From: Patescibacteria group bacterium | Lineage (GTDB): Bacteria > Patescibacteriota > Minisyncoccia > Phycocordibacterales > Zambryskibacteraceae | DNA length: 64,000 nt | NCBI GenBank assembly: GCA_004322205.1 | Contig: SCSN01000009.1 | Coordinates: 29,836-93,835 of the forward strand | Direction of reading: 5' to 3' | In this document: piece after piece, positions 6,667 to 49,792 of the stretch | Layout: every line of letters starts with the position of its first letter | Numbering within the stretch: the stretch's first letter is position 1 | The notes under the pieces: generated by a model | The model's input: the letters and a program-made list of their open reading frames with translations, nothing else | Told to the model about the DNA's origin: nothing | Databases searched by the model: none | Position numbers and translations under genes: made by a program

Positions 6667-6723
6667 TGAGTATAGCTCTTTTTACAAAAGCACTATATTA
6701 TATATAGTGAAATATACCAAAAA

Positions 6724-7563: not shown

Positions 7564-7577
7564 TTTTTGTTCTGACC

Positions 7578-7865: not shown

Positions 7866-7869
7866 GCAA

Positions 7870-18919: not shown

Positions 18920-20206
18920 ATGAAGTGGGGAAGAATACTCTTGATGGTGGCGCTGATATTTCTCTCTGCGACAGAGAGCACGCAGGCGTTTTCCATTAGT
19001 GAGTTACGCGACCAGATTGAGAAGAAACGACAGGAAAAGGAGAAACTCGAGGAAGAAAACAAGAAGCTTGAAGCGCAGATTGACGAAGCGAACAAGAAGT
19101 CCCAGTCGCTTCAGGGTACGGTCAAAGCTCTTGATACCACTCAAAAGAAACTCCAAAATGACATTAAAGTGACCGAGAATAAAATTGGCACTACCGAACT
19201 GTCAATCAAAAAAGTGGCGCTTGAGATTCAGACAAAAGTGTCCACTATCACCGCTGATAAAGAAGCTCTGGCCAAGACAATTCGTAATCTCCAGTCTGCT
19301 GAAAGCCATTCAACAATTGAAGTTTTTCTTCAGTATGACACTCTCAATGAATTTTGGAGTACGCTTGAAGCGATGAGTCAGTTCCAGGGAAGTGTTCGGG
19401 ATCACATCGCGGGTCTCAAAAAGGTCAAACTTGAGCTCGAAGGTAAACAGGTGGAATTTCAAGGAAAAAAACAGGAGCTCGTCGAGTTCAAAGGCGAGCT
19501 CTCTGACCGCAAAGTCATTGTTGATCAGAACAAAAAAACCAAGAGCACACTGCTTGCTCAAACTAGAAACCAGGAAACCGAATATCGCCGCCTGCTAGAG
19601 CGCAACATTGAGCTTGGAAGAAAATTCGAAGCTGAACTTTTTGAATTCGAGTCCCAGCTCGAGCGTGCCATTGACCGCAGCAAACTTCCGGCAGAGCGTC
19701 TCGGGCTTCTTTCCTGGCCGCTCGAGAAGATTATCATTACCCAAAGGTTTGGAAAAACTGTGGAATCGCGTCGGCTCTACGTCTCCGGCACCCACAACGG
19801 CACTGATTTTCGAGCATCGGTTGGAACGCCGGTGATGGCTGTTTCCGGAGGAGTTGTAGAGGGGATAGGGAATACTGACGAACAAGCCGGCTGCTACTCC
19901 TACGGCAAGTGGATTTTAGTCAAGCACGGCAACGGGCTCTCTAGCCTCTACGCTCATCTTTCTGCCATTAAGATGAGCTCTGGGCAAACTGTCGGTCAAG
20001 GTGAGATAATTGCCTACAGCGGAGGTCAGCCGGGAACATTCGGCTCGGGGTTTTCGACCGGCCCTCACCTTCACTTGACGCTTTATGCATCTGATGGTGT
20101 AAAGATACAGCGCTACGAAGCAAGCAAGTTCTGTAAACAAGTGAGCATTCCTACAGCAAGCGCCAGCGCTTACCTTGACCCTCTGGCGTATCTGCCGTCT
20201 CTCTAA
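18920..20206 (+). CDS. M23 peptidase with N-terminal coiled coil (EnvC-like)
   Basis: Signal/TM segment, long coiled-coil, C-terminal M23 motifs (HNGTD, GPHLHLTL). Confidence 0.75.
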   Translation: MKWGRILLMVALIFLSATESTQAFSISELRDQIEKKRQEKEKLEEENKKLEAQIDEANKKSQSLQGTVKALDTTQKKLQNDIKVTENKIGTTELSIKKVALEIQTKVSTITADKEALAKTIRNLQSAESHSTIEVFLQYDTLNEFWSTLEAMSQFQGSVRDHIAGLKKVKLELEGKQVEFQGKKQELVEFKGELSDRKVIVDQNKKTKSTLLAQTRNQETEYRRLLERNIELGRKFEAELFEFESQLERAIDRSKLPAERLGLLSWPLEKIIITQRFGKTVESRRLYVSGTHNGTDFRASVGTPVMAVSGGVVEGIGNTDEQAGCYSYGKWILVKHGNGLSSLYAHLSAIKMSSGQTVGQGEIIAYSGGQPGTFGSGFSTGPHLHLTLYASDGVKIQRYEASKFCKQVSIPTASASAYLDPLAYLPSL

Positions 20207-20878: not shown

Positions 20879-21448
20879 TTAATATTTTCTAATCACTGCC
20901 TTCACCACCGCGGCTACGCGGAAACTTTCTCTCGGGTATATCGGCTTGTATCTTTTATTGGCCGGCTCAAGCCAAACTTTATTTCCTTGCTTGCGGAAAT
21001 ATTTCATTGTCCAGCCGCCGTCGATTTCCGCGATTACAATGTCTCTATCCCGCGCCTCCCCTCGCCTCTCGGCCAGAACATAGTCGCCCTCATCAATATG
21101 GGCGTCAATCATCGAGTCTCCCTTGACTTCAAGAATATAAGTTCTTGCCCTGTCTTCAACGAGAAAATCTTCAAGACTGACGGTATCAAGGTCAATCTCA
21201 TCGGCATCAGCTGGAAGCCCCGCCTCAACCAATCCCACCAGAGGAATTTCACTCTCAATGCGCTTCGGCACAATTTTCCCACGCGAATCTTTTGAAACTA
21301 TTCCCTGCTCCACTAACCAACCAATCAGCTTGTGAACGGAGTTTTTCGACTTGAAGCCCAGAATCTGCATTATCTCCTTATAACCCGGCATCCGCTTGTG
21401 CTTTTTGTAGAAATCTATAATTTTTGTTTTTTGTTCCTCTTTTCTCAT
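20879..21448 (-). CDS. lexA: LexA repressor (S24 peptidase)
   Basis: N-terminal winged HTH; VKGDSMIDAHI catalytic Ser; K of the Ser-Lys dyad; own promoter carries a GAAC-N4-GTTC box. Confidence 0.9.
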   Translation of the reverse strand: MRKEEQKTKIIDFYKKHKRMPGYKEIMQILGFKSKNSVHKLIGWLVEQGIVSKDSRGKIVPKRIESEIPLVGLVEAGLPADADEIDLDTVSLEDFLVEDRARTYILEVKGDSMIDAHIDEGDYVLAERRGEARDRDIVIAEIDGGWTMKYFRKQGNKVWLEPANKRYKPIYPRESFRVAAVVKAVIRKY

Positions 21449-23385: not shown

Positions 23386-23856
23386 TTACCTTGCATTTCC
23401 CCATACATTCCCATTGTTATCGTAGGTGTAGGGAGCATTGTAGATTTTGGTGACGGCATGAGGATTGGTGTAGCCGGCATCAGTATAGGTGTAATTCCCT
23501 TTGTCGCTCTTCCTTGTGATGTTCCCTATGGCATTGTATGTAATGTCATGTCTGAAGTTAGAGCCGTAGATTGCAACAGTTGAGGAAGCGATGATGAGCC
23601 TATTCAGATCATCGTAATACAAGTCCAGCGTCTTTTTGGAGTTTGTCCCCGATTGATCCACGATCTTTGTTATATTCCCCACCGCATCATATGTATAGGT
23701 GATGTCTTGCAACACATCAGAGGAAGAGGCGTTGACGTAGTTTATTTCCAAATACGGGTCAGACGATGTACCCGCTTGTTCGGAGCTGTACATGTGTATA
23801 CCGTGGAAAACAGTTGGAGTGGAGCTGGCGATGTCATGGTCGGCTTCTTCTGTCAC
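23386..23856 (-). pseudogene. orphan internal RHS/YD-repeat fragment
   Basis: 156-aa ORF about 90% identical to an internal segment (ADHDIASSTP...YTYDNNGN) of the giant RHS gene about 5 kb away; lacks both core ends. Confidence 0.75.
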
Positions 23857-24356
23857 AGCTTGATTTTATCAGGATTTTCGTATTTTTTTATCAAGATTAG
23901 AGTTTGCTCATCCAGTTCGATATTTGGATTGAGTTCTTTGAGGTGTTTAACAATTTTAGCACCAGTCTCTTCCGTAAATGATTCATTTGGTAGTTCGAGA
24001 TATTTCATTTTTCCATCTGAATCACTTATGATGTATAGTGATTTGTAAACGTCCCCAAAGCTTTTATCTAGGTTAAAAGTAGGCTGTCTTGAGATCCGTT
24101 TAATATGCTCTATATTAATACATTTCTTAATTACGAAGCAGTCAACCTTGCAGGCCGATTTATTGCCAACTGATAAATATATACCAGAAAAAGCGTTCAA
24201 AATTAATAAGAGACAAGCTAGAGCAAGACCAATTACGGTTGAGTTATAAAAGTTTCTCCCTGAAAGGAAAAAGGCTAATAGAAAACCACTCCCTAAGAGC
24301 ACTGCGATTGAGCCAGCCCATTTTTTACTTGTTCTGTATTTTATCTCCTTCATCAA
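23853..24356 (-). CDS. candidate RHS immunity protein (paralog of 25327..25800)
   Basis: 167 aa; N-terminal TM helix and C-terminal VKHLKELNPNIELDE motif shared with the second immunity ORF; 4-nt overlap with the upstream orphan CT module. Confidence 0.5.
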   Translation of the reverse strand: MMKEIKYRTSKKWAGSIAVLLGSGFLLAFFLSGRNFYNSTVIGLALACLLLILNAFSGIYLSVGNKSACKVDCFVIKKCINIEHIKRISRQPTFNLDKSFGDVYKSLYIISDSDGKMKYLELPNESFTEETGAKIVKHLKELNPNIELDEQTLILIKKYENPDKIKL

Positions 24357-25219
24357 TTTCCACCAAACGCATTCCTAAATCTAATCAATTTCTGCTGTTG
24401 TCGATAGGCTGCCTGTTGTATTGCGGTAATATATTGTTGGAGCGACATACCTGAACCTCCCGAACCACCTCTTAGAGATTGCAGTGCACCCCGTGCTATA
24501 AAACCAGTACCGGCTCTGAAGACACCCTGTACTGTGGTGTATTGAATCTGCCTCGTCCATAAATCTGAACTTATTCCTTCTGGTTTTTTTAACAGGACAC
24601 CCTTAACAGGAGCTTGACCTACTCCAAACTTGAAAAGACCTCGCGCAACCATTGAGTTTGCAGCAGACACAGACGCTTTTTCAAAGTCTAGCGGTTCCTT
24701 GCCGGCAAGATCTTGAACGAGTGATCCTACACCAGAGGATAAGCCAGATGAAACAATCGATGTTCCAAAAAATCTCCCTCCTCCAGCCGCGAAGAGTTGA
24801 GCCACTATATACTCGCCCGGAGAGGAGCTAGGTAAATACTGATCAATACCACTAACATTATTCGTTCTATTCTCCATAATATCCACCGCCCACTTTGCAA
24901 GGGAAGCGACACCTGCACCGATTATCGGTACAGCATACGGCATCAAGGGACACAACACGACAAAACACAACCCTTGTGGATCCTTGTACACATAAGGGCT
25001 ATTGTTGGCATAGCTGTAGCTGTTTAAGACTTGTGGATCAGAAAGTAATTTCTTTAGGTCTTGGTTTGAGAGTTTTGTGGCTTCAGGTGAGCCCAACCAT
25101 ACGAATATAGGATCTTGTGAGGCAAACCTCCCAATACGGCCGTCATAGTAGCGTGCATTGAGACATGAGAGAGCTGTATCATCATCGTATTCCTGTCCAA
25201 TGTATTTTATGAGTAGCTT
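24353..25219 (-). pseudogene. orphan RHS C-terminal toxin cassette (5'-truncated, no start codon)
   Basis: Reading frame open from 25219 (stop at 25220..25222); begins inside the last RHS repeat (YIGQEYDDDTALS...YYDGRIGRFASQDP), has the DPQGL boundary, then a Cys-rich hydrophobic CT domain. Confidence 0.65.
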
Positions 25220-25326
25220 TCAGCTTTTAGCTGTTAGGAAATACGAATAACGAATCAGGAATTATGAGTTAGGAAGGACAAGGCGCGGAGGCTTTTTTAA
25301 AGAACAAGCTCGACCTTTGGTCCTAG

Positions 25327-25800
25327 CTAGATTTTAGCAGAACTTTCGTACTTCTGTATTAGATTCTCTGCATTTTCGTCTAATTCTATTTTCGGATTGA
25401 GTTCTTTGAGGTGCTTTACTACTTTGACAATAGTCTTTTGTGTGAACCCAATATTCGGCATCTCAATATATTTACTTTTATGATCAATCTCACTAGCAAC
25501 ATAAAGTGATCTTGCACTTCTTCCAATGATAAAGGTTGGTGTGTATGATATTTTCTGAATTGAATTGATTTCCAAACATCTTTTTAGAATAAAACTATCA
25601 GTACGGCAAATGGTTCTATCGCTGATATGCACATAGGTACCAAGGAAATTATCAAGTGCGATAAATATTAATAAAACAAAAACAAGTAGTATAATTGGCT
25701 CAATTCCTTCTGAAATTTGTCTTAATATAGCCGGAAAAATGCCGATTAGTAGTAGGACAGCTATCATCCCAGCCCAGGCTTTATCAGTTCTGTATCTCAT
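25327..25800 (-). CDS. candidate RHS immunity protein
   Basis: 157 aa; TM N-terminus and VKHLKELNPKIELDE motif; start overlaps the stop of orphan CT-1. Confidence 0.5.
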   Translation of the reverse strand: MRYRTDKAWAGMIAVLLLIGIFPAILRQISEGIEPIILLVFVLLIFIALDNFLGTYVHISDRTICRTDSFILKRCLEINSIQKISYTPTFIIGRSARSLYVASEIDHKSKYIEMPNIGFTQKTIVKVVKHLKELNPKIELDENAENLIQKYESSAKI

Positions 25801-26906
25801 GGCTTCTTTGAGTTAAAACTAGCAATGAGACTCCTCAGGGCTGATATGAATTGATTCATATTAAACGGCCTCCCATTTACCTGTCCTGAACCTTGAGCTG
25901 CCGGCCTACTTGAACCGCCAGAGGAGCGTCGTAATTCCTGGGCCCCCATACCCGGAAGTGTTTGCAGGGCCTCTTGCCCAACCGCATATCTAGCACCTTT
26001 ATCCAGAAGTGATGATGATGTTTTCTTGAATAAATTTGGCAATCCTTCTTCTGCCAATTCATCAAATGGTGATTGTCCAGCTGCAGATTTGAAGAGTTTT
26101 CCACCTATCCCCGCAGAAACTCCGGTTAGTACAGCTTTAATTGGATCAATAGGTCTTCCCCCAGCATAATCTTGAATTACCGAGCCTGCGGCCGCTATTA
26201 CTCCCGAGGTCACAGCTTTTGTTCCAATTTGCACTGCGGATGCAGCACCGAAACTTACACTGGTTACGTATTCAGAAAACGAAGACCTTGGCGCAAACTG
26301 TTGCCAACCCACAACACTCGCAGCTTGATTTTCCCTAATATCAGAATACCAAGTACTGTAAAACGCTACTGTCCCCCCTATTAAAGCCAGGATACAAGCA
26401 GGGCACAAGCCATTCGGATCTTTGTTAACAATAGGGTTATTATCCGCATATGCATAGCTATTCAATGTCTGTGGATTTGAGAGAAAGAATGATTGATCCT
26501 GTCCGGTTAATTTCTTTAATCCCTGAGAATATCCAATCGCCAAGAAACTCGGATCCTGACTCACAAACCTCCCAATACGTCCATCATAGTATCTGGCATT
26601 GAGGTATGAGAGTGCGGTTTCAGTGTCATACTCCTGCCCTATGTATTTCCTTGATTCATTGTATGTTGTTTGTTTCTGATCTGTTCGGAGTTCACCGAAG
26701 GGGAAGTAGTCAATGAGTTCACTCACTGTGCTACTTGCGTCTGTAATTACCGTTGAACCTTGAAGGTGGTCAGTGTGCACGTAGTATGTACTCGTTCCTG
26801 TATTTGTTCCTCGTACTGAAGCTAGGAGGGTATTGTTAGCGTAAACGTGGTGGTCTCTCGTACTAGAATAATTAGTCATAAATAGTGCCTGACCCCATAA
26901 TCCCAT
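25797..26906 (-). CDS. orphan RHS C-terminal module (last YD repeats + DPNGL + CT domain)
   Basis: N-terminal about 150 aa are roughly 85-90% identical to the 3' core of the giant RHS gene (YYVHTDHLQGSTVITDASST...YYDGRIGRF); then DPNGL followed by the divergent CT CPACILALIGG... Confidence 0.7.
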   Translation of the reverse strand: MGLWGQALFMTNYSSTRDHHVYANNTLLASVRGTNTGTSTYYVHTDHLQGSTVITDASSTVSELIDYFPFGELRTDQKQTTYNESRKYIGQEYDTETALSYLNARYYDGRIGRFVSQDPSFLAIGYSQGLKKLTGQDQSFFLSNPQTLNSYAYADNNPIVNKDPNGLCPACILALIGGTVAFYSTWYSDIRENQAASVVGWQQFAPRSSFSEYVTSVSFGAASAVQIGTKAVTSGVIAAAGSVIQDYAGGRPIDPIKAVLTGVSAGIGGKLFKSAAGQSPFDELAEEGLPNLFKKTSSSLLDKGARYAVGQEALQTLPGMGAQELRRSSGGSSRPAAQGSGQVNGRPFNMNQFISALRSLIASFNSKKP

Positions 26907-26966
26907 GAATCCCCAGGACTGAAAAACCCAGCAAGAAATGTGGAGTTTGCGAAGTTTTCTGGTTTA

Positions 26967-27410
26967 TCAAACACTTTGAATATCGGGGTTAGCATCTATG
27001 AGAGATTTGGGTGCACGATAATAATACCAGTTTTTTTCTCGCGTTAAATTATGTTTTTGTTCGTGCGCCAACCCACAAATATTTTCTTTTATTTTTATGG
27101 TTTTTTCTTCGAAGAGTGAATCTGGTAAAACAAGTTTTTTTTCAACTTCTTTTTGTTCTTCTGAACTTAATTCGGTAAGAACAATGTCAATCGCACTTCT
27201 AACATCAAGATTGTTAGTATACTCATATATATCATCTTCCATTTCTACATCTTCCGTTATTTTTTCCCATCTGGGAATTAAATAGTTTAAGCCGTCCTTA
27301 ACTATAAAGTCGGCGTAACCTTCTAATCTTTTTTTTATTTTTTCTGTATGCGGGTAGGGCATAATTTGTATCTGACTTATAACTGGTTTTGAATTAATTG
27401 CTTCTCCCAA
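26967..27410 (-). CDS. candidate cognate immunity protein of the main RHS toxin
   Basis: 147-aa acidic ORF whose start overlaps the RHS stop by 17 nt (27394..27410). Confidence 0.45.
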   Translation of the reverse strand: MGEAINSKPVISQIQIMPYPHTEKIKKRLEGYADFIVKDGLNYLIPRWEKITEDVEMEDDIYEYTNNLDVRSAIDIVLTELSSEEQKEVEKKLVLPDSLFEEKTIKIKENICGLAHEQKHNLTREKNWYYYRAPKSLIDANPDIQSV

Positions 27411-30400
27411 ATCGCCGAGAAAACCTTGCGGCTGCTTGTTGCAACCTAATAACTTGCGCCTGTAACGAAGACACGTCAGAAGCAGAGAGACTTAATCCGT
27501 TGCTCCAACCAGAATATGAAGCTCCACTTGAAGGTTTGAAGTATGTATGCATTGTGACACCCCCAGTATTTTGATTCATGCTGAAAGACGCGAAGGAATT
27601 TGTTCTCGTGTCATAAGTGTTAATTCTTCCTCTGGTTTTATCAAACCTAAGTGGATACTTACCACTAATAGCATCTGTAACAAACTCACGAGCTGATTCT
27701 ACATACTCTTTTGTATTTGTTGTTCCAAAGTCAGCAGCATGATCTGCCGCGTGTTTTGTAGCATTTGCAGCGCGATTCGCCATAGATCCTTTGCTCCAAA
27801 CGCCTTCAAAATTAATATTTGGCTTCGGCGAATTTGGCACTGGTCTAGCACCGACGGTTGCGAGTGGCGCAGCATCAAAGTAAATCTGTGGTTGACTAGC
27901 CGCTGCATATGCTTCTGGTTCGTACACAGGATCTGGAGATAGGGGACGAGGCATAAACAGTAACATTCCAATAATCCCCCATGGTGTAGGTGGAACTTCT
28001 AATCCCTGTGGATCCTTGTTTACAATTGGGTTATTATTTGCATAAGCATAACTATTCATTTGCTGGGGATTGGAGAGAAATATTTCTAAGTTTTGAGTGC
28101 TTAATCGTTCAAGGAGCGAAGAACCAATTTCTAAAAACACCGGATCCTGACTGGCAAACCTCCCAATACGACCGTCATAGTATCTGACATTGAGGTAAGA
28201 CAATGCGGTCTCTGTATCATACTCCTGCCCTATGTATTTCCTTGATTCATTGTACGTTGTTTGCTTCTGGTCTGTTCGGAGTTCTCCAAAGGGAAAGTAG
28301 TCAATGAGCTCATTTAGAGTTGATGAGGCGTCGGTAATAACTGTAGAGCCTTGGAGGTGGTCGGTGTGAACGTAATAAGTGGAGGTGCTTGTCGTACTGG
28401 ATCGAATGGAAGCCAGTAACATTCCGTTGCTGTAAATATGCTTGTCTCGTGTAGTGGTGGCTGATACGTCATAGTACATGTTGGGGTAGTAGGTGGCGGT
28501 AGTTCCCACCTGATACTTGACTCTAGCTCCAGCATGATCGTAGGCCATCTGCATCGTACTCGTCGCCTTCGTTATCTTTGTAATCCAATTGTTGTAATTC
28601 CAAGTACTTGTCGCTATCCCCCCTATCCCCAGCATATTCCCATTGTTGTCGTAGGTATAGGGAGCGTTCCAGACTTTGGTAACAGCCTGGGGGTTAATGT
28701 AGCCAGAATCAGTGTAGGTGTAATTCCCTTTGTCGCTCTTCCTCGTAATGTTCCCTATGGCATTGTACATCACATCATGTCTGAAATTGCTCCCGTAGAT
28801 GGCAACAGAGCTTGAAGCAATCACCAATCTATTCAAGTCATCATAGTAGAGATCCAGTGTCTTTTTCGAATTTGTGCCTGATTGATCCACAATTTTGGTT
28901 ATATTCCCCACCGCATCGTAGGTGTAAGTGATGTCTTGCAACACATCAGAGGAAGAGGCGTTGACGTAGTTTATTTCCAAATACGGGTCAGACGATGTAC
29001 CCGCTTGTTCAGAGCTGTACATGTGGATGCCGTGGAAGCCGGGTGGAGTGGAGCTGGCGATGTCATGGTCGGCTTCACGGATGGCGATGAGGGTGGTGGA
29101 GGTGGGAGAAATCCAGCTTGTTCCGGTGGCATTGAGGTACCATTTGTTGTAGCCAATGAGAAAGTCAGCGCTGTTTTTTCTTGTTGCTCCCTCATCGGGG
29201 TTATTGATAGTCATTCTGGAATAATCGGAATTTTGTAGGAGTGTGGTAGAGGCTTGGTTGCTTTTAACAATTGCCATATTACCTCCATCTTGCTTGGCGT
29301 AGACATAGATATTAAGAGATGCAGATGTAACAGTAGCGTTTGAGCCAAGAGAGGAAGTGTCAAAAACGTAGAACTGACGAGAATTACCAAGATAATAGCC
29401 AAAATCAGTATATGCTCTGGCCGTCCCTTGATATGAATCCCCTCCATAGTAATTGGCAGATGTTGTAGCTCGAATATATGACCAAGGGCGACATGCACAA
29501 GCATCGCCGCCATATGCGGAATCGTCGATAAATGCCAAGCCGCCGTCTCCAGAGCCTGAATATGGGCTAAGGGTGAGATCGGTGCGGACCGGAAAGACTG
29601 TCGTTTTGAAGTAAGAGGCCGGGAGAATCTTGGTAACTTGAATGTTTGTACCTATTTTCTCGTAACGAATTGAGATGGGCCGTAAATGCGCTCGATTGGC
29701 GTCAGAATCATCTATGTACGGGGCGCGAATATACGAAACTCCTCCGCGGTCATCAATGATTTTTGCAGGATTGGCGGAAACAATTGTTCCGGCTTGGCTT
29801 AATCTTTTACCTTCTACCTCAATGTCCAAATCGCCTGAACTGGTGATTTCAAATAGTATTTCGTAGTCAGTGCCCGTGGCGAAGGTTTGGAGCGTCTGAC
29901 TATTTGCAATCACAAACTCTTTGGTAAGTGATACATCACCAAGCGACACTACCATGTCGGCGCCGGACCCCAGATAATTTTTATATGTAACTCTCTTCCC
30001 TGCCCACATGGGATCGGTCAATTCCTTTTGGACCGTAGCCGATGAAGTTGCCGCCTGCGGGAATGTAAGTGAGAGTATTTGACCACCGTTTTCAAAAGTG
30101 ATGGGAGAGTTTGTCGGCGATTTATCAAGTGTCGCTTTATACGGAGCCTTGTACATAAGCCAATTGTTTTGGCCGTCAATGAGGATAGTGTCTATCTCCG
30201 AAAGATTTCCTGCGCTGTCCCGATAGAAGATGTCGCCGGAGTAAAACTGCCCTTGGCGGATTTCATTGCCTTGGGGGTCAAAACCTATGAGGTAAGTCTT
30301 GCTTCTGGAAGTTCGCAGGTCATCTTTTTCAAACGGTTGATTGAGTATATAGTTCCCGTTTTCATCCACGACAGACTGCTCCGCCCGCAGATAGTCCTCC

Positions 30401-33400
30401 ATACTTGCATAACCCATAAATCCCTCTCCGCCAGTTCCGCCCACTTTAGTTGTGATTTTTTTCTGAAGGCGATAGAGTTCATCGGGGTTGTAGACGAAGT
30501 AGCTCTCCGTATTGTTGGCGTAGTAAATATATGAAGGTTGGCCAGTCGGAGCATAGTCAATGTCTGAAACCACATCCGTAAAGCCGCCGCCGGCAGTTTC
30601 TTTCTTCTCAACTTTCTCAACCTGTCCGCCGTTGTTGTACGTGTAGCGAGACTCAAAGAGGTCGGGATAGACGATGTTTACGATATTTCCCTGCCTGTCG
30701 TAGGCGTAGGTAGTTGTTAGATTATTGGAATTTATCTTTTTCAGTTCTGTTACCACACGGCCGAGGGGATCATAGGTATAGACTGTATTTGCTCCAGTGC
30801 TTGTGGCCGCACAGAGTTGCCCCTTGCCGTTGGTACAGCCGTCGTAGCTGTACGTTACCTCTACTCCGGTCAGTCCTGTGAAGTCTTCCGTCAGAACTCT
30901 GTTAATTCCGTCGTACGTAAAATTAACTTTCTGGTTTTTCTGATCATAGCGCTGGACAAGATTACCTGCGTTGTCGTAGACATAAGTTGTTGAAGCAAAC
31001 GTGGAGTCAGCGGATGCGTGGAGATCCTCTGCTTTTGTACGCCTGCCGAGGCCGTCGTAGGTGAAGTTGCGGACGTTTCCGAGCGCGTCGGTGATTTTCG
31101 TCAGATTTCCGAGCCCATTATAGAGATAGTTGGTCGTGTAGGTGGACGTCGCGTTAATCTCATCTACCTTTGTGAGGTTGTCATACGCGTCTTTGTATAG
31201 CTTCTTTTGCTTGCTGCGGGCATCGGTAACAGTCAGCACCCAATCGTCATAGGCGTTAGTAGTACTCCCCACTGCATTTGTAATCTTTGTCACTCTTTCC
31301 AGCGGGTCATAGGTATAACTGATCTCGAGCTTCGAGGCGGTTGAGGTGGAAGAGCGGCTCGAGCCTTGGGCAAAGTACGGCAGAGTTTCTTTATCAAGAA
31401 GGCCGATGTTGTTGTAAGTATATTCCTTTACAACAAATTCGCTCGTATTCTCCGCCTCTTTTCTCTCTTGGAGAATGCGGTTGAAGCCATCAAGGTATGA
31501 GTAGGTATCTACGATGTTGGAACTATCCAGGTAGTCACTTCTTTTTACAACTGTCGGAACCGTATTGTCCGTATAAGTGAAGGTTGTTTTTGTCTCAAGG
31601 GTGGAAGAGGTTGAAGTGCTTGGCTGTTTTTCTTCTGTCACACGATCGAGGCCGTCATAGGTTGTTTGGAAAACGAAATTATTGGGATCAGTAAATTGTT
31701 TTACCTTGCCAGAGGAGTAGTCATATTGGTATCCAAAGTTTTGGCTTACTGCGTTTGTTGTTGTTGCCGGGTAAAGATTGTTCGCATCATATACGTAGGT
31801 AGTGTTGTTCCCCCTTGGGTCAGTATCGGTAGTGACTAAGCCGTAGCTATTGTATGCCTTTGTGGATGAGGCGTAAGCCGAGCCAGTTTTCCAGAGTTCC
31901 TGCTTGGTAAGATTTCCTTTATCGACATTGCCGTAAGAGAGGGTGTCGTAATAGAGCTTTGTTTCTTTGACTTTATTTGAGCTCTGGTCAAACATTCCCT
32001 CTTGGGACAGGAGATTCACTGAAACGGAGCTGGTGGCGGAGCTTGTGGCGTAGGTGTAGTTAAAGGTGAACTTGTCTGTGCCCGCATCTGTAAATGTCCC
32101 GTCATCGCTTGCAGTTACTTCACCCCAGAGAGTCTTTTGAGAGAGATTGCCGGCGCTGTCGTCATAGACATAGCTTTCGGCCTTGTGTTTGGAATCAGCA
32201 TCACCGTCCTGCGCCCAGTCAATAGTCTGCGTAAGCTTTACATAGTGGCGATCGTTCGCTAACCCGACATTCTCCCACTTGTTAATCTTTTTAGAGTAGA
32301 TGTTGTTCGACGCGTCAGTGATTTCAGTCCTATAGGTTTTACCGATTTTCGAGACGTGATCACTAAATTCGCCGAGAGATGAATCTGTGGTGTTTCCTTG
32401 GTGGTAATATGTTTTAACTTTGGTTCCAGCATCGTTACTCCTCGTGGTACTGGCAAATCCAGCTAGACGTCTGTCACGGCCAGTGTTGAAATAGAATCGC
32501 CCATCGGAATAGGTGTAGCTAACTGCTTCAGTATTGTTGACTCCGTTGCTCTTGGTGATTTGGGAAACTGTGTCAAGAATAATCGGAAGCTTGGGATTAA
32601 GAAGGTTTCCTCCGGATGCTGTATACAGCGGAGTTTGTTTGTAGGTAATATCGTGAGTGGCTCCTTTATCTGTAACAATTTTTATTAGTTGATCCGTTCG
32701 CGAAGGATTGGCGAGACGAATAGTATTTTGCGTTGAGTTGGCACTCCAGTATATCGACTGCAAGATATCGGGTATGGCATCCCCGTCAACATCGGCCATG
32801 CGCACCCCCTCGTCTTGATCAAAACCATTTGCAAAGTCTACGGGCGGGTCCCAAGAAGGATCGGTTATCTCTACCCACTGTTTCCCGGTATTTTTAGAAG
32901 TGCCGCGGAGGGTAAGCGGCGGATTACCGTTATAGACGTAGGAGGAAATCATATCCGTCAAGTTGTCGCCGTTGACATCGGCATAACGCACTCTCATGGA
33001 AACCGATGCGGTGTAGCCAGTCTGGCTTTTCCAGCCATTGCCTGTATTCATGTGAGTTGTAGTGGAAGTGAGAAAATCATAAAGCCCGTCTGCATTGACA
33101 TCCAAAAGCTGAATATCATCGGTTATCCCATCCGTGGCAAAGGACATGGGGTTTTTCCAGCTGGCTGATTCCGTCCAACCGGCGCCGTTATTCATATATA
33201 TTTTGTTGAATTGCTGGGTGCTGGTCGCATGAGAATAGAGAATATCTACGAGGCCATCGCCGTTTACATCACCTAAACGAACCCCATTGTCTTTCTCGGC
33301 GGCAATAAAGTATTCCGGCGGCTGCCACGTTGAACTTTCAGACCAACCAGAGCCAGTGTTTAAATATGTTTTCTTTGTAGTCGAACCACTGCCTGCATCA

Positions 33401-34995
33401 ATTGCCCAGAGAACATCGATGAGAAGATCCCCGTTTACGTCTGCAAGTCTCACGCCATCGTCTTTCCCATCTTTCACAAAGTGCACTGGGAATTGCCAGC
33501 TTGAATCGTAACTCCAAGTGAGGTTGCCTCTATTATTGAGATAAATTTTTTGAGTAGAGGATGCAGAACCTTCGAGCTCTGACCAAATGAAATCGGCGAG
33601 CGCGTCCCCATTTACGTCTGCCATACGCAAACCTTTGTCGGTGCGCGAGGTTCCGTCCTTGATAAACCACATCGGAATGGTGCCGGAGGCGGCAGGATTC
33701 GGATCCCACCCATTAGCAGTCAAGGTATTTCCATAAGTAAAGGAGGTCTGCGGAAGAGTGATTTCCGTCCCCAAATCATCCTTGCCAGTTTCCACAATGC
33801 CTCCCAGCAGTTTTCTTTCTCCGTTTTCAGCCAAGGCAGAATTGAAGGTGTATTTTCTAACCCAAGAACCGTTAACTTTGGCTTGCACTTCGTTTATGAA
33901 ATACTTGGTAACAACTTCAAAGGCGGGCCGGCTTGAGGTGGCGTAGCCGGCAGCGCCGCGATTCTGGCGGAAGAATTCAAGCTCGAAGATACCGTCTGTT
34001 ACTCCGTTGCCGGTGTATTTGATTTTTGAGGGGTAAATGTATCCTGCTCCTTTGTAATACTCGTATTTTATGTAGTTATCATTTCTGTCTCGCACTTCCT
34101 CAAGCATCCAGCGATAGATCTTCGTTCCATCAGATGGATCATCCATTCTTGTGCTAGTGGAGTAGCCGAATTTGTATTGTGTCCCGCTTTTGTCTGTTAC
34201 AAGCCACGTATTACTAGAAAAGGTATATGCCCTGAACGCCCCATTTTCGTACTTCGCTCCGTAAGCCGTAGTTGTAGTAGAGGTTGTGGCAAGTTCCCCG
34301 TCAAAGGAAGAGGTAAAATAAGTTGAAGAATATAGATTGTCGGAGCCGGTGCGATTGAGACGCTCAATGTACGGAATATCCAAGTTCCAGCCGTAGCCGA
34401 ACCAGTTTACGTCGTCTGCCGTTTGATTGTTGTAGTAGAGGGTGGCGCTTGGAGTCAGACCGTTTCTGCCGGGCGACACAGTCAGTTTGTATTGATAATT
34501 GAACGAACCTGCATAGGAATCCAGTGTGAAAGCGATTCGCAGTTCTTCGTCTTTGCTCCGATCCCTAATCGGCAAATCAGAAGACTCGCCGAGAAGCGAC
34601 AAGATACCAGCTTCCCCTTCTCCAGCGGGCTCTTCATCTGTTTTCTGCTGGGGCGCTCCGTTCTGGTTTGTCTGCTCGCCCGCGACCTCGCCGGGCGGAG
34701 TACTGGGGTTGCCTGCGGCTTGCCCCGCCGATTCATTTTGATTTGCTTCTGTCGGCTTGTTCCCCGATATCCCGGGAGTAACAGAAAATTCAACATCAGC
34801 CGGACTCTCAACAGGGATATTTTGAAGAGCACCGCCGACATTCGGAGTATTCGGCTCTTGGTTCAGAGTCGCCGTCTCTTCCTGCGCGGAAACAAAGAGC
34901 GGCTGGAGGAAAAAAGAAAATACTAACGTCAAAGACGTTAGTATTTTCAAGCACTGCCGCACCTTGAGAAAATCAAAAGTACGCCTCGCCCTCAT
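27394..34995 (-). CDS. giant secreted RHS/Tc-toxin BC-like polymorphic toxin
   Basis: 2533 aa; signal peptide; Pro/Gln/Gly-rich linker; SpvB-like GYGWNLDIPYIERL segment; six or more DVNGD(G)xxD FG-GAP/VCBS-like repeats; tens of YD repeats; PIVNKDPQGLE core boundary; then an about 200-aa unique C-terminal domain. Confidence 0.9.
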   Translation of the reverse strand: MRARRTFDFLKVRQCLKILTSLTLVFSFFLQPLFVSAQEETATLNQEPNTPNVGGALQNIPVESPADVEFSVTPGISGNKPTEANQNESAGQAAGNPSTPPGEVAGEQTNQNGAPQQKTDEEPAGEGEAGILSLLGESSDLPIRDRSKDEELRIAFTLDSYAGSFNYQYKLTVSPGRNGLTPSATLYYNNQTADDVNWFGYGWNLDIPYIERLNRTGSDNLYSSTYFTSSFDGELATTSTTTTAYGAKYENGAFRAYTFSSNTWLVTDKSGTQYKFGYSTSTRMDDPSDGTKIYRWMLEEVRDRNDNYIKYEYYKGAGYIYPSKIKYTGNGVTDGIFELEFFRQNRGAAGYATSSRPAFEVVTKYFINEVQAKVNGSWVRKYTFNSALAENGERKLLGGIVETGKDDLGTEITLPQTSFTYGNTLTANGWDPNPAASGTIPMWFIKDGTSRTDKGLRMADVNGDALADFIWSELEGSASSTQKIYLNNRGNLTWSYDSSWQFPVHFVKDGKDDGVRLADVNGDLLIDVLWAIDAGSGSTTKKTYLNTGSGWSESSTWQPPEYFIAAEKDNGVRLGDVNGDGLVDILYSHATSTQQFNKIYMNNGAGWTESASWKNPMSFATDGITDDIQLLDVNADGLYDFLTSTTTHMNTGNGWKSQTGYTASVSMRVRYADVNGDNLTDMISSYVYNGNPPLTLRGTSKNTGKQWVEITDPSWDPPVDFANGFDQDEGVRMADVDGDAIPDILQSIYWSANSTQNTIRLANPSRTDQLIKIVTDKGATHDITYKQTPLYTASGGNLLNPKLPIILDTVSQITKSNGVNNTEAVSYTYSDGRFYFNTGRDRRLAGFASTTRSNDAGTKVKTYYHQGNTTDSSLGEFSDHVSKIGKTYRTEITDASNNIYSKKINKWENVGLANDRHYVKLTQTIDWAQDGDADSKHKAESYVYDDSAGNLSQKTLWGEVTASDDGTFTDAGTDKFTFNYTYATSSATSSVSVNLLSQEGMFDQSSNKVKETKLYYDTLSYGNVDKGNLTKQELWKTGSAYASSTKAYNSYGLVTTDTDPRGNNTTYVYDANNLYPATTTNAVSQNFGYQYDYSSGKVKQFTDPNNFVFQTTYDGLDRVTEEKQPSTSTSSTLETKTTFTYTDNTVPTVVKRSDYLDSSNIVDTYSYLDGFNRILQERKEAENTSEFVVKEYTYNNIGLLDKETLPYFAQGSSRSSTSTASKLEISYTYDPLERVTKITNAVGSTTNAYDDWVLTVTDARSKQKKLYKDAYDNLTKVDEINATSTYTTNYLYNGLGNLTKITDALGNVRNFTYDGLGRRTKAEDLHASADSTFASTTYVYDNAGNLVQRYDQKNQKVNFTYDGINRVLTEDFTGLTGVEVTYSYDGCTNGKGQLCAATSTGANTVYTYDPLGRVVTELKKINSNNLTTTYAYDRQGNIVNIVYPDLFESRYTYNNGGQVEKVEKKETAGGGFTDVVSDIDYAPTGQPSYIYYANNTESYFVYNPDELYRLQKKITTKVGGTGGEGFMGYASMEDYLRAEQSVVDENGNYILNQPFEKDDLRTSRSKTYLIGFDPQGNEIRQGQFYSGDIFYRDSAGNLSEIDTILIDGQNNWLMYKAPYKATLDKSPTNSPITFENGGQILSLTFPQAATSSATVQKELTDPMWAGKRVTYKNYLGSGADMVVSLGDVSLTKEFVIANSQTLQTFATGTDYEILFEITSSGDLDIEVEGKRLSQAGTIVSANPAKIIDDRGGVSYIRAPYIDDSDANRAHLRPISIRYEKIGTNIQVTKILPASYFKTTVFPVRTDLTLSPYSGSGDGGLAFIDDSAYGGDACACRPWSYIRATTSANYYGGDSYQGTARAYTDFGYYLGNSRQFYVFDTSSLGSNATVTSASLNIYVYAKQDGGNMAIVKSNQASTTLLQNSDYSRMTINNPDEGATRKNSADFLIGYNKWYLNATGTSWISPTSTTLIAIREADHDIASSTPPGFHGIHMYSSEQAGTSSDPYLEINYVNASSSDVLQDITYTYDAVGNITKIVDQSGTNSKKTLDLYYDDLNRLVIASSSVAIYGSNFRHDVMYNAIGNITRKSDKGNYTYTDSGYINPQAVTKVWNAPYTYDNNGNMLGIGGIATSTWNYNNWITKITKATSTMQMAYDHAGARVKYQVGTTATYYPNMYYDVSATTTRDKHIYSNGMLLASIRSSTTSTSTYYVHTDHLQGSTVITDASSTLNELIDYFPFGELRTDQKQTTYNESRKYIGQEYDTETALSYLNVRYYDGRIGRFASQDPVFLEIGSSLLERLSTQNLEIFLSNPQQMNSYAYANNNPIVNKDPQGLEVPPTPWGIIGMLLFMPRPLSPDPVYEPEAYAAASQPQIYFDAAPLATVGARPVPNSPKPNINFEGVWSKGSMANRAANATKHAADHAADFGTTNTKEYVESAREFVTDAISGKYPLRFDKTRGRINTYDTRTNSFASFSMNQNTGGVTMHTYFKPSSGASYSGWSNGLSLSASDVSSLQAQVIRLQQAAARFSRRFGRSN

Positions 34996-35060
34996 AAATT
35001 TATCTTATGCGCTTTTGCGATATAAAACAGTGCCGCATCTGTGGAATACATGTGGAAAAC

Positions 35061-35097
35061 AAAACCACGCCCCGCGGTTGCGGGGCGTGGTTTTGTG
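35061..35097 (-). terminator. Rho-independent terminator
   Basis: AAAACCACGCCCCGC-ggtt-GCGGGGCGTGGTTTTGT, perfect stem flanked by an A-run and a T-run, immediately downstream of the gene ending at 35102. Confidence 0.6.
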
Positions 35098-35101
35098 TGG
35101 A

Positions 35102-35530
35102 TTACTTACGGGCTATTTCGTTAAACTTCGCCCAGCAGGGAGATGACGAGAGCCACGGTCTGGTACCTTCCCTCTCGTAGAGATACCGCGCGTAAGCGAG
35201 ATTCCCCCCCAGAGAGTGGATGTCAAAGCCGAGACGCTCCGCCCTCTCGAGATGATAGAGTTCGTTAATCTGCATCACCCCGACGTCAAAGCGGTTGACT
35301 TTACCGCGATGAATTTCCCCGTTGACACCAGTCTGGCGAAAATGCGACTCGCAGCGAGCGATTTCAACCATAATCGGCAGATCGGAGAAGTACTCGACTA
35401 CTTTTTCTTTGGTGGTCGGCGGCTTCACCTCGGAGACCGCAGTCTCCTCGATGGGCGGGGCCGCCGCGGGATTTTCTAACATCGCAGCCGGGGCGCCCAG
35501 ATAGCTGAAGCCGGAAATGACAGCAAGCAA
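35102..35530 (-). CDS. Rpf/lytic-transglycosylase-like domain protein with N-terminal signal/anchor
   Basis: CESHF...DVGVMQIN...PW..SSPCW motifs resemble the transglycosylase-like (Rpf) fold. Confidence 0.45.
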   Translation of the reverse strand: MLAVISGFSYLGAPAAMLENPAAAPPIEETAVSEVKPPTTKEKVVEYFSDLPIMVEIARCESHFRQTGVNGEIHRGKVNRFDVGVMQINELYHLERAERLGFDIHSLGGNLAYARYLYEREGTRPWLSSSPCWAKFNEIARK

Positions 35531-47008: not shown

Positions 47009-49792
47009 CTAAATCTGCGGGGCTATTTCCTCATTAGGAATAGATGATTTTTGATATTTTTTCATAACTTCTGCTTCAACTTCTTCAGCTGGACGGCCAA
47101 AACGCTCAAACGACGCCTGTTTGATTGTCTGCGGATCACTTATACCCTCTTCTGCTACAGATATTGTTTCAATGCTAAAGGGCCGCTCCGGCCTGCCGTT
47201 TACAAGAAGTTTCAGGTGGGCGCGGCGATTTTCGATATTGACGAGCCCTTGGGCGGTAAAGACCGGCTCAAACTGCTTTGCCAGATATTCAGCATCATCG
47301 CTTCCCACCCGGAAGGCAGCAATGGTGCCAACATTTCCAAAGACGGCGTTTTTAATGTTTTCCTCAAGCTGACCGATGAATTGGTGGGCAATAGTGAGAG
47401 AGAGCTTGTACTTGCGAGCTTCGGAAAGAATGGTGGCTATGGAATTGGTTGTGATGTTTTGGAATTCGTCGATATAGAGATTAAATGTCGGCAATCCGTC
47501 TGCTGGCGGACTAGCGAGTGAGTCCACGCGCGAGAGCGCCGCCATCAGAATTTTGCCGACGAGAACCAAACCAATTAGATTAGCGTTGATGTCACCGAGG
47601 CGGCCTTTTGAAAGATTGACCAGAAGGATTTTGCGATTATCCATAATCTCCCTAAAGTTAAAGGCAGAGTGTTCTTGAGCAACAATGGGACGCATGATGT
47701 CGTTTGCCAGAAAGACGTCAAACTTGCTTGTGATATACGGCACGATATTGGCAAGGGCCGCCTCGCCGCCAGCTTTTTCGGCAACTTCCTTCCAGAACTG
47801 CACCACTACCGGGTTACCGCAGCGCGAGAGTTTGAGCTGGCGGAATTCCCTATTGGACAGCACCCGAGAGACATCAAGAAGTGTCGAGCCGCTTTCCGGG
47901 TCTTCAATGACAAGCATTGCCGAATTGCGGAAATATTGCTCAAACATCGGCCCCATTGACTCCGGCACCGCCCCATAGAGTTTCTGGAAGATATTGAAGA
48001 GCTCGTTTACCACAAATGTTTTTTGCTCGGGGAAACGCGGATCGTACTCGAGCATATTGAGCCCCATCGGTTTCTGTGTATAGGCTGGATCGAAATAAAT
48101 CAGGTCTTGAACGCGCTCCGGCGGAATGTGCCGCAGAACATCTTCAATATCAACTCCGTGCGGGTCAATCATGGCCACACCTTGACCTCGGGCGATATCC
48201 TGAATAATCATGTTCTTGAGAAGAGTGGACTTCCCTGTTCCCGTTTGACCAATGGTGTAGAAATGACGCAAGCGGTCGTCATCGGTAATATATACTTTCC
48301 GCTCAACTCCTTGGAAACGATTGACGCCAAGAAGAGTACCCTCGGCGGGAAGATTAACCGGCACCGGGGCATCGTGTGCTCGAAGAGTGCGAAGTTGGGC
48401 CACGCCGGAAAGTGCTTCAGTATGAAAATGCACAAGCGAAGTCAGCTCTTTGAGATTGAGTGGAATTGCTTCCTTTGGCAAGAACAGCCGGAAAGCGAAA
48501 TGCCGCAGAAACCGCTTTAACCGACTGCCAGAGGCTCTCTTAAAGCGCAGTGACAGCCCTTGGGGATTGTCAAACTGCTTAAAAGCTGATTCCAAGTCGC
48601 CAAGGATTGCTTCGGCCCGTTCCCGGCTTGCCGCCGAAGCCGCCAAACGAAGGGAGGCCGAGACAATGGGGGCGGATAATTTTTTCTCCACTCGCTCTAC
48701 CGCCGCCTGATCAACGGTCTTTGGTTTACCGTCATCTTTCTTCTTTTTCTCCGAAGAGAAGAGTTCTTTGAAAAGACCGAAGGCCTCTTCGGTAAAGGTG
48801 GTAGAAATTTTTGTGGCTTCTTTTACCGGAGCACCTTCCTTTATTTTCTTTAGCGCATAACCAAATCTTTTGGCGTAGATCTCACCGGCAGGTTGGATAA
48901 GGAGTTGTAAACTCGCCCCTTCCCCTTCCCGATTAATTTTGGAAAAGACCTGAAGAACAATGTTGAGCGGATCGTGGTCGAATTCGTCATAAGTTTTAAG
49001 TGGAAAAACCGGACTGCCTTGGGCAACGGCATATGAGCCGGCAGAAGCACCTTGCTCGTTAAAAATGTTGTAGTCATTGACCCGTTCGCGCAGTTGAGCT
49101 CCGGGGAAAATGGAAAGAATTTGTTTTTCAAAGAGAGCTTTTTTTGATTCGGGAACTGCGGCGTAGAAAACAAACTCCTCACTGCCGTTTTCGTTGGCGA
49201 TTTCCAGAACCAAATAATTTTCCGCCGGCTTTTTATCCGGAGAGACAGCAAGCATCCCCGCGTAAAACTGCTCCATTCCCGAGAGAATTTCTTTAAGCGT
49301 ACGCTCACGCTCGTTGCTTGCCTGCGGGATTACAATCTCAAAAAGTGCCAGCGACAGGGCTTTGTAGAGTGGTTTTCGTTTAGAAATACCCTTCACTTCA
49401 AAGCCGCTCTTAATATACTGTACCAGGTAGCGATGGAGATCATCCTCGACGTGAATGTCGCCGAGTTTTTCCAGCACCGAAAGAGCATTCTTGATTCCCT
49501 TTTCATTGACAAGTTTGATGAGTTCCTGAACGCGGCTGTCGTGGCGCTCCGGCGCCAAATTGAGAGCGGCAGCTTCAACCTGCGCGCCCGGTAAACGAAA
49601 CGATTCATCGAGGATTTGTTCGCTCGGTATTTTCTTGTACTCCTGTATCTTTTCAGTAATAACAGTCTCACGATCGGAGGCAACGCCCTGCTCGGTCAGC
49701 TCCCGCTCTCGCCGAATAACTTCTCGAGTGACATGCGATAGCTCTTCTTGCGGACTGCGTAAATACTCCCCGGAAGATGAAGGTTTCTCCAT
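47009..49792 (-). CDS. VirD4/TraG/TrwB-like (type IV coupling protein family) P-loop ATPase
   Basis: 927 aa; Walker A GQTGTGKST; Walker B LYIDEF; KLSLTIAHQFIGQL...GNVGTIAAFRVG motif typical of coupling-protein/FtsK-HerA-type ATPases. Confidence 0.5.
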   Translation of the reverse strand: MEKPSSSGEYLRSPQEELSHVTREVIRRERELTEQGVASDRETVITEKIQEYKKIPSEQILDESFRLPGAQVEAAALNLAPERHDSRVQELIKLVNEKGIKNALSVLEKLGDIHVEDDLHRYLVQYIKSGFEVKGISKRKPLYKALSLALFEIVIPQASNERERTLKEILSGMEQFYAGMLAVSPDKKPAENYLVLEIANENGSEEFVFYAAVPESKKALFEKQILSIFPGAQLRERVNDYNIFNEQGASAGSYAVAQGSPVFPLKTYDEFDHDPLNIVLQVFSKINREGEGASLQLLIQPAGEIYAKRFGYALKKIKEGAPVKEATKISTTFTEEAFGLFKELFSSEKKKKDDGKPKTVDQAAVERVEKKLSAPIVSASLRLAASAASRERAEAILGDLESAFKQFDNPQGLSLRFKRASGSRLKRFLRHFAFRLFLPKEAIPLNLKELTSLVHFHTEALSGVAQLRTLRAHDAPVPVNLPAEGTLLGVNRFQGVERKVYITDDDRLRHFYTIGQTGTGKSTLLKNMIIQDIARGQGVAMIDPHGVDIEDVLRHIPPERVQDLIYFDPAYTQKPMGLNMLEYDPRFPEQKTFVVNELFNIFQKLYGAVPESMGPMFEQYFRNSAMLVIEDPESGSTLLDVSRVLSNREFRQLKLSRCGNPVVVQFWKEVAEKAGGEAALANIVPYITSKFDVFLANDIMRPIVAQEHSAFNFREIMDNRKILLVNLSKGRLGDINANLIGLVLVGKILMAALSRVDSLASPPADGLPTFNLYIDEFQNITTNSIATILSEARKYKLSLTIAHQFIGQLEENIKNAVFGNVGTIAAFRVGSDDAEYLAKQFEPVFTAQGLVNIENRRAHLKLLVNGRPERPFSIETISVAEEGISDPQTIKQASFERFGRPAEEVEAEVMKKYQKSSIPNEEIAPQI

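Follow-up and report, generated by a model that had tools for sequence, protein, structure and literature searches.

A candidate Sec-exported Rhs polymorphic toxin with orphan toxin-immunity modules in a Patescibacteria group bacterium

The stretch analyzed here, hereafter the window, comprises 64,000 nucleotides (nt) of contig SCSN01000009.1 (positions 29,836 to 93,835; GenBank assembly GCA_004322205.1) from a Patescibacteria group bacterium and contains a rhs locus between window positions 23386 and 34995. A first-pass annotation, made by a model from the letters alone, had described this region as a polymorphic toxin island of the Tc-toxin/RHS type with orphan toxin-immunity cassettes in an otherwise streamlined housekeeping genome. 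Profile searches, repeat analysis and comparison with related loci support the presence of an Rhs-type polymorphic toxin island with immunity candidates and orphan cassettes in a housekeeping window. All genes of the locus lie on the minus strand; coordinates without a prefix are window positions, and the P and L numbers denote proteins and loci recovered in our searches.

The main rhs gene (27394..34995) starts with ATG and encodes a protein of 2533 amino acids (aa) that an exact look-up did not find on record. Pfam recognized RHS_repeat (E value of 4.7e-28), SpvB (2.3e-12, aa 162-315) and FG-GAP_3 (2.6e-10) in this protein, and NCBIfam recognized Rhs_assc_core (TIGR03696, 1.7e-16, aa 2233-2332) and YD_repeat_2x (1.3e-15). 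Together with a motif scan, these matches agree with the earlier description of a 7.6-kb gene with a signal-like N-terminus, an SpvB segment, six FG-GAP repeats, a YD-repeat shell, a DPQGL boundary and a C-terminal domain (CT) of ~200 aa; the RHS/YD and SpvB profile matches that had been proposed as a check were thus obtained. Hydropathy and reading of the sequence revealed the n/h/c layout of a Sec signal at the N-terminus, with a basic n-region, a hydrophobic stretch at aa 16-37 and VSA followed by QE, and we therefore place a putative Sec signal peptide at aa 1-37 (MRARRTFDFLKVRQCLKILTSLTLVFSFFLQPLFVSA, followed by QE; 34885..34995). The N-termini of the relatives P0001, P0006 and P0011 are similar. 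The signal is followed by an acidic linker rich in Pro, Glu and Gln (aa 38-161; 34513-34884; isoelectric point [pI] of 4.05) and by an SpvB/TcB-N-like domain (PF03534; aa 162-315; 34051..34512; E value of 5.8e-13 on the sub-fragment), in which GYGWNLDIPYIERL begins at aa 200. Six FG-GAP-type repeats occupy aa ~450-760 (32716..33648; on the sub-fragment, FG-GAP_3 2.2e-12 in 5 stretches and FG-GAP 3.3e-6), with the D[VL][ND][GA]D motif at aa 460, 519, 576, 632, 673 and 735, and putatively form a six-bladed beta-propeller as in TcB. The first part of the RHS/YD-repeat shell, defined by RHS_repeat matches, extends over aa ~761-1520 (30436..32715), and the second part, together with the Rhs-associated core, over aa 2020-2332 (28000..28938; core at 28000-28299). 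The core holds RYYDGRIGRFASQDP and, at aa 2328, a terminal DPQGL that leaves a CT of 201 aa. By analogy with known cores, this arrangement corresponds to the aspartyl-protease motif (RYYD...GRF.SQDP...DPQGL), and autoproteolysis of the CT is predicted. The combination of SpvB, FG-GAP and RHS segments is shared by P0001 and P0006, and the best sequence matches among solved structures in the PDB were the Rhs effectors Tse5 (5.1e-17), 7q97 and Tse15. No PAAR or VgrG match was found in the main protein or among the neighbors scanned.

The two parts of the shell are separated by an insertion of ~500 aa (aa ~1521-2019; 28939..30435), which the first-pass annotation had not reported. It appears as alignment gaps in all three closest full-length relatives, namely P0001, which is 45% identical over aa 1-1520, P0006 and P0011. 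The insertion is genuine rather than a product of misassembly, because the reading frame is open throughout and because the boundary at which the insertion ends and the shell resumes occurs again, as an independent copy, in a diverged rhs fragment at the distal end of the locus (23386..23856). The C-terminal half of the insertion (aa ~1840-2009; 28969-29478) matched the NCBIfam DNRLRE_dom profile over positions 4-164 of 164 (E value of 3.3e-6), with a score of 27.3 bits that lies below the curated cut-off of 34, and Pfam CBM96 matched weakly (0.22). Pfam yielded nothing significant on the insertion, a word-index homology search with it returned no homologue, and a single-sequence AlphaFold2 (AF2) prediction made with no alignment gave an unusable model (predicted local distance difference test [pLDDT] of 31.8). 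The DNRLRE domain is part of the N-terminal wall-binding fragment of Streptococcus suis WapA (PMC12704120), and CBM96 is an alginate-binding module (PMC9971899). Given this likeness, a surface- or glycan-binding role of the insertion is plausible.

The CT of the main toxin (aa 2333-2533; 201 aa; 27397..27999) consists of a hydrophobic, Pro-rich leader, a predicted RNase domain and a basic C-terminal helix. It had been regarded as unique, which did not hold. While Pfam and the word-index search gave no match, a full HMMER scan over 1.84 billion representatives recovered 191 relatives (best E value of 6.8e-21). Of the 150 relatives among the matches listed, 135 have the domain no more than 30 residues from the C-terminus. 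Proteins that carry it range from 83 to 3155 aa, the large ones tested bear RHS repeats, and with the CdiA protein of known structure this range indicates that the family occurs on other delivery scaffolds as well. The PDB profile match was 8ey4 ('PT-VENN domain-containing protein'), a toxin-immunity complex of contact-dependent inhibition (CDI), with an E value of 2.7e-25. In the AF2 model of the CT (pLDDT of 91.5), two helices pack with a four-stranded antiparallel sheet, as in the solved members of the BECR fold. The CT thus contains a BECR-fold domain of the colicin D/CdiA-CT class (aa ~2407-2504; 27484-27777), most likely an RNase. Four residues that are near-invariant across the family, H2415, H2419, K2487 and Y2494, are all retained in the main CT and represent candidate catalytic residues. 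Pfam holds no model for this family, and our search for literature on PDB 8EY4, including its substrate, found none.

Directly downstream of the main CT lies a small acidic open reading frame (ORF), called at 26967..27410, that had been proposed as the immunity gene. Alignment with its homologues puts the start at ATG 27362, which yields a protein of 131 aa (26967..27362; pI of 4.9; GC content of 0.33) and removes the 17-nt overlap with the main gene. The acidic ORF is 33% identical (4e-16) to the ORF directly after P0003 in L003, P0003 being an orphan with a 47%-identical CT found on the groundwater contigs L003-L006, and its identity is 32% to the immediate downstream neighbor, in L009, of P0007, a protein from a metagenome-assembled genome (MAG) of Candidatus Parcubacteria. 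Homologues of the acidic ORF therefore follow homologous CTs immediately in L003-L006 and L009, in keeping with the proposal; a metagenome scan with the acidic-immunity alignment found only L003 and L006 again. In four other loci the same downstream position is taken by a Cys_rich_CPCC protein (PF14206), at L007:13184-13594, L008:3133-3540, L012:10772-11092 (L015:16155-16475) and L013:930-1259, and L009 carries both an acidic-family gene and a CPCC gene (L009:1612-1962). The CPCC proteins look like a second, unrelated family of candidate immunity proteins for the BECR toxin. The downstream gene can be seen in 7 loci, and in all 7 it is a member of one of these two families. Conserved synteny thus marks the acidic ORF as the candidate cognate immunity gene of the main CT, and Pfam found nothing significant on the CTs and immunity ORFs.

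Further downstream, the locus contains two orphan modules that each comprise the end of an Rhs core, a CT and an immunity candidate and that share core homology with the main gene. Orphan 1 (25797..26906; 369 aa) retains the last ~165 aa of shell and core (Rhs_assc_core, 4e-18), followed by DPNGL and a basic CT of 202 aa rich in Gly, Ala and Ser; it has an ATG and no signal peptide. Its core region is 77.8% identical at the nt level to the main gene at 28010-28380, with an exact tract of 38 nt. The start of immunity candidate A (25327..25800; 157 aa), in which hydropathy indicates two N-terminal transmembrane (TM) helices followed by a soluble domain, overlaps the orphan 1 stop by 4 nt. Orphan 2 (24353..25207) consists of a degraded core stub with a weak Rhs-associated core match, KDPQGL and a CT of 204 aa. 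An ORF can be called only from TTG 25096 (24353..25096), and translation of the frame showed that the core remnant extends upstream to ~25207 with no start codon; the remnant at 25110-25207 is 75.5% identical at the nt level to the main gene at 28142-28239. Immunity candidate B (23853..24356; about 166 aa; two TM helices) overlaps orphan 2 by 4 nt. Thus, of the 4- to 17-nt overlaps previously noted, those between the orphans and their TM ORFs stand. A promoter and terminator scan of the orphan region gave no more hits than expected by chance. GC content is 0.33-0.35 in the three immunity candidates, 0.45-0.47 in the adjacent CTs and 0.477 in the whole window.

The array ends with the displaced rhs fragment (23386..23856), which corresponds to aa 1974-2123 of the main protein, spans the junction of insertion end and shell, and contains no core or toxin (RHS_repeat, 2.6e-5). 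As had been suggested, it derives from an internal segment: over 451 nt it is 84.7% identical to the main gene at 28626..29076, with exact matches of 83, 33 and 29 nt. The exact repeats of 38 nt (main gene and orphan 1) and 83 nt (main gene and fragment) are long enough for homologous recombination.

The two orphan CTs, of which Gly, Ala and Ser make up 34-38%, are 41% identical to each other at the aa level, and their two-TM ORFs are 42% identical. On this sequence evidence, the CTs and their TM partners are co-diverged paralogues, and such parallel divergence is what would be expected of toxin/immunity pairs. The earlier account of two further modules with different CTs and membrane ORFs therefore needs amending: the modules are present, but their CTs are paralogues and orphan 2 lacks a proper start codon. 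Immunity candidate A has a single foreign homologue (26% identity; 1.6e-8), L008:857-1321, an ORF that follows a Gly-rich Rhs CT; a metagenome scan with the TM-immunity alignment found nothing. In L008, the terminal part of an Rhs gene, which carries the Gly-rich CT, is followed by the TM ORF, a BECR-CT orphan (P0002), the CPCC protein, a third orphan whose CT is also Gly-rich, and small TM ORFs. Judged by gene order and similarity, the window and L008 are built from the same kinds of modules, arranged differently, as would be expected of polymorphic toxin loci that shuffle their modules.

As a separate observation, five CTs with unrelated toxin domains, three in the window and two in L008, each carry a short tail, basic and amphipathic, as their very last C-terminal segment. 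The tail is a helix in the AF2 model of the main CT (27397-27483; ...LQAQVIRLQQAAARFSRRFGRSN) and corresponds to 25800-25860 in orphan 1 (MNQFISALRSLIASFNSKKP), 24356-24440 in orphan 2 (...IQQAAYRQQQKLIRFRNAFGGN), and L008:700-827 and L008:4620-4686 (...NNLLNYVSAKLGN and NLYSAIKTSVTSAVKKISNQSN). The BECR-CT relatives P0001-P0007 terminate in ...DLKNLFSK or similar, and no DNA similarity was found among the basic tails. The tail might serve as a release or translocation signal.

The remainder of the window is of housekeeping character and encodes DnaK/DnaJ, six aminoacyl-tRNA synthetases, a cell wall cluster (MraY/FtsW/MurG/Mur ligase/PBP), L9, DnaB, RecR and CorA. In line with the first description, no TcA domain and no domain of a type VI or type VII secretion system (T6SS, T7SS) was found in the 44 ORFs scanned of the 64-kb window. 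The reported flanking dsbA/VKOR pair was confirmed by Pfam, whereas the 'Rpf-like' muramidase on the other side (35102..35530) gave only a weak SLT lysozyme-like match (0.019). This lysozyme-like ORF is not kept beside the rhs gene of the relative in L002, and a strong intrinsic terminator on the minus strand (~35056-35090) separates it from the main gene; the terminator consists of an 11-bp GC-rich stem (CCACGCCCCGC / GCGGGGCGTGG) with an AACC loop, followed by the T-run TTTTGTTTT. We therefore rejected the lysozyme-like ORF as a component of the island, and the promoter of the rhs gene must accordingly sit in the ~60 nt between the terminator and ATG 34995.

Several further features of the window were recorded. 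Just upstream of the dsbA/VKOR pair lie a LexA-like S24 peptidase (20879-21448, minus strand) and a 428-aa M23 peptidase (18920-20206, plus strand), so that with the lysozyme-like ORF several secreted wall-active enzymes surround the island. A 927-aa TraG-D_C/DUF87/FtsK-like ATPase of the VirD4/VirB4 type (47009-49792, minus strand) is found a few kb from a large serine recombinase (51744-53288, plus strand), the 3′ end of which overlaps the sole tRNA of the window, tRNA-Glu (CTC; 53269-53344, minus strand); this region might represent an integrated element or else belong to the type IV secretion/competence machinery of Patescibacteria. GC content is also low (0.41-0.42) in a second stretch (4000-9000), which contains a carbamoyltransferase (4936-6666, minus strand), a 279-aa ORF with no Pfam match (6724-7563) and a GAF histidine kinase (7870-9273). 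The phage and plasmid collections yielded no match.

A 2633-nt contig, SCQK01000018.1 (L001), from the Patescibacteria group bacterium isolate DP16D_bin.9 is 100% identical at the nt level to window positions 31865-34497, and the window therefore stems from the DP16D_bin.9 population. This internal 2.6-kb contig is all that the public SCQK01 MAG contains of the 7.6-kb gene, and patterns from the rest of the gene gave no further confirmed match in the public MAG collection. Short-read assemblies thus apparently break at the Rhs locus, and counts of such loci in Patescibacteria MAGs may be too low.

Every feature of an Rhs polymorphic toxin system with orphans that can be sought in sequence was found here; the N-terminal half is TcB-like and the predicted export logic is WapA-like. 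Rhs toxins with SpvB/FG-GAP heads were reportedly already catalogued in the 2012 polymorphic-toxin survey of Zhang, Aravind and colleagues. The closest parallel in export is provided by the WapA-type Rhs proteins of Bacillus subtilis and S. suis (WapA-CT1/CT2; PMC12704120), which have a Sec-type N-terminal signal, as predicted for the window protein, and a DNRLRE-type surface domain, to which the window insertion is similar below threshold. They likewise have no T5, T6 or T7 apparatus nearby and comprise an RHS shell, an Rhs core, a polymorphic CT, an immunity gene directly downstream, and truncated orphan copies of core and CT that lack a signal peptide. In S. suis, such Sec-dependent toxins with a DNRLRE domain and orphan modules have been documented experimentally (PMC12704120). 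Unlike WapA, the N-terminal region of which consists of LysM or wall-binding repeats, the window protein carries SpvB and six FG-GAP repeats there, its DNRLRE-like module lies inside the shell instead of N-terminally, no neighboring sortase or SecF-like gene was observed, and the host is a Patescibacterium. With the TcB-TcC cocoons (TcdB2-TccC3, YenB-YenC), the protein shares the order of SpvB, FG-GAP propeller, RHS shell, core with aspartyl-protease motif and basic hypervariable toxin, here fused into one polypeptide; it differs from them in its putative signal peptide, immunity genes, orphan cassettes, colicin/CDI-type RNase and extra ~500-aa shell insertion, as well as in the lack of a TcA in the 64 kb and of Pfam TcdB_toxin_midN/midC matches.

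The arrangement of the array resembles the enterobacterial rhs loci of Salmonella and Escherichia coli (Koskiniemi et al. 2014, as cited in PMC12704120), in which the main gene is followed by promoter-less orphans of core end, CT and immunity gene. There too, the core DNA of the orphans is homologous to that of the main gene (here 75-85% identity with exact tracts of 38-83 nt) and displaced fragments lie at the distal end; those systems, however, are T6SS cargo linked to PAAR/VgrG, while the window protein has a putative Sec-type signal and no PAAR domain. The T6SS Rhs effectors (Tse5, RhsA, Tse15 and Rhs1) include the solved structures whose sequences best match the YD shell and share the logic of encapsulation and autoproteolysis that we infer here, but no PAAR, VgrG, chaperone or T6SS genes accompany the window gene and its N-terminal half is different. 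With respect to the toxin itself, CdiA-CT of E. coli O32:H37 (PDB 8EY4) and the colicin D tRNase domain (PDB 1TFK, 5ZNM) are BECR-fold RNase toxins of the same class as the main CT; they are delivered by CdiA/CdiB or a colicin translocation domain instead of an Rhs shell and are paired with a different immunity family, and the window CT has an additional basic C-terminal helix and belongs to a family that Pfam does not model.

Collectively, these comparisons make it probable that the locus encodes a Sec-exported, WapA-like Rhs polymorphic toxin with a TcB/TcC-fusion-like architecture in a Patescibacteria bacterium (candidate phyla radiation [CPR]). The label of a Tc toxin holds only for the TcB-like N-terminal architecture; we prefer a WapA-like antibacterial Rhs toxin to an ABC toxin because of the immunity genes, the putative signal peptide, and the absence of a Pfam TcdB-mid match and of TcA among the window ORFs scanned. 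We propose that the protein would be exported by Sec across a single membrane and that its YD repeats would fold up as a closed cocoon, with the N-terminal region and the core as plugs. The core aspartyl-protease motif would cleave after DPQGL, with the basic toxin remaining unfolded inside. The propeller, the shell-inserted DNRLRE/CBM-like module or both would bind a surface structure on a neighboring cell, after which the toxin would be released, enter via its hydrophobic leader and cut tRNA or other RNA, while the acidic 131-aa protein would keep the RNase inactive in producer cells and their immune kin. The orphan modules would act as silent spare toxin/immunity pairs, the immunity genes of which could still protect, and homologous recombination via the conserved core (the 38-nt exact match with orphan 1) could move spare modules into the main gene. 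Since their partners are membrane proteins, the orphan CTs would probably act at the membrane, a proposal drawn solely from the location of those partners. The targets are most likely non-immune neighboring bacteria on the same surface, namely rivals among the Patescibacteria, or relatives in competition for a host, because immunity proteins located in the membrane and the retention of orphan immunity genes fit siblings that are hit from outside; the host is the main alternative target.

Several points weigh against this interpretation. The proposed export, the folding into a cocoon, the autoproteolysis, the RNase activity, the immunity and the target are each read from analogy with characterized systems. 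We know of no delivery route for a cocoon of >250 kDa that lacks TcA, T6SS or CdiB-type machinery, and this includes WapA itself. Similarity among the CTs does not track which of the two unrelated downstream families follows and gives no clean partition; co-occurrence of CT and downstream ORF is therefore supported, while the strict co-variation that had been proposed as a check is supported only in part. The orphan CTs had no detectable homologue in Pfam or the PDB, nor did the orphan 1 CT in the word-index search, and the Gly-rich CTs of L008 showed no detectable relationship to them (hhalign probability of 0.1%) despite the similarity of the TM partners. A glycine-zipper explanation of the orphan CTs was also rejected, as motif and periodicity were no higher than in shuffled sequences.

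It is an appreciable possibility that the toxin is aimed at the host cell of an episymbiont, for parasitic or predatory killing or for growth arrest that yields nutrients, and that immunity protects the producer only during synthesis. The organism is a Patescibacterium, and cultivated members of this group live on host cells; an RNase toxin needs an antidote on the producer side whatever its target, the DNRLRE/CBM96-like module in the shell could bind a host wall polymer, and a lysozyme-like gene adjoins the locus. That gene, however, is a separate transcription unit behind its terminator. Membrane-embedded immunity candidates and retained orphan immunity genes are typical of systems that strike sibling cells from outside, and competition within a species is characteristically marked by orphan arrays and fast CT turnover.

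A bolder variant, which we regard as doubtful, sees in the protein a self-sufficient 'BC-only' injector: a Sec-exported cocoon of the TcB/TcC type that would need no TcA, dock via its propeller and the shell-inserted module, and deliver the toxin C-terminus first. Release in that direction would be guided by the basic amphipathic tail found on the three window CTs and the two L008 CTs. If true, this would represent a distinct delivery mode by which ultrasmall episymbionts manipulate or kill the cells they live on.

We judge it quite unlikely that the protein is the BC fusion subunit of a true ABC (Tc) toxin; in that case a TcA pentamer, encoded at another site in the genome, would attach to the FG-GAP propeller and the CT would be injected, possibly into a eukaryotic cell. 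The order of SpvB, six FG-GAP repeats, RHS shell and core is that of TcB-TcC, the relative P0011 matches Pfam TcdB_toxin_midN, and the CTs are basic (pI of 9.5-9.8), as is favored for Tc cargo release (PMC7861908). Nevertheless, the window protein itself did not match TcdB_toxin_midN or midC even at an E value of 10, and no TcA-like protein occurs among the window ORFs scanned. Its signal-like N-terminus contrasts with the release by lysis described for the Tc toxins of Yersinia entomophaga (PMC10847048), and the candidate cognate immunity genes, the orphan arrays and the CDI/colicin-type RNase are antibacterial features. Moreover, 96.4% of known TcC proteins come from Proteobacteria and 3.2% from Firmicutes (PMC7861908), and a tcA gene of ~7.5 kb would be costly in a reduced genome. 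Barely credible is the idea that the protein mainly serves as a surface adhesin, with shell, propeller and CBM-like insert attaching to a host and with the toxin and orphan modules as decaying relics, since the large extracellular beta-rich architecture with its carbohydrate-binding-like insert and the clearly degraded orphan 2 and terminal fragment are set against a 7.6-kb ORF intact through core motif and toxin, retained near-invariant toxin-family residues, an intact cognate immunity gene in conserved synteny, and an intact orphan 1 and pair of TM ORFs.

The remark that such a weapon would be unusual for an episymbiont proved overstated, as a 2487-aa RHS/YD toxin with a neighboring immunity gene was reported from a Saccharibacteria genome in 2018 (PMC6031116) and a related module occurs in the Parcubacteria MAG described above. 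In the literature searched, Rhs toxins in Patescibacteria appear as passing remarks only. The biology of the locus extends a well-understood system and reveals no new one, with only the host lineage and a few details being unusual. What is new is the documentation of an orphan array from a Patescibacterium, a BECR toxin family with a solved relative and no Pfam model, a candidate pair of CT and TM immunity protein with no detectable relatives, and a large shell insertion. The known effectors that Patescibacteria direct at their hosts or rivals are few. The locus offers, in a CPR organism, a concrete toxin/antidote candidate pair, the predicted BECR RNase and the 131-aa acidic protein, together with two further candidate pairs, in a reduced genome that spends ~12 kb on a polymorphic weapon with spare cassettes.

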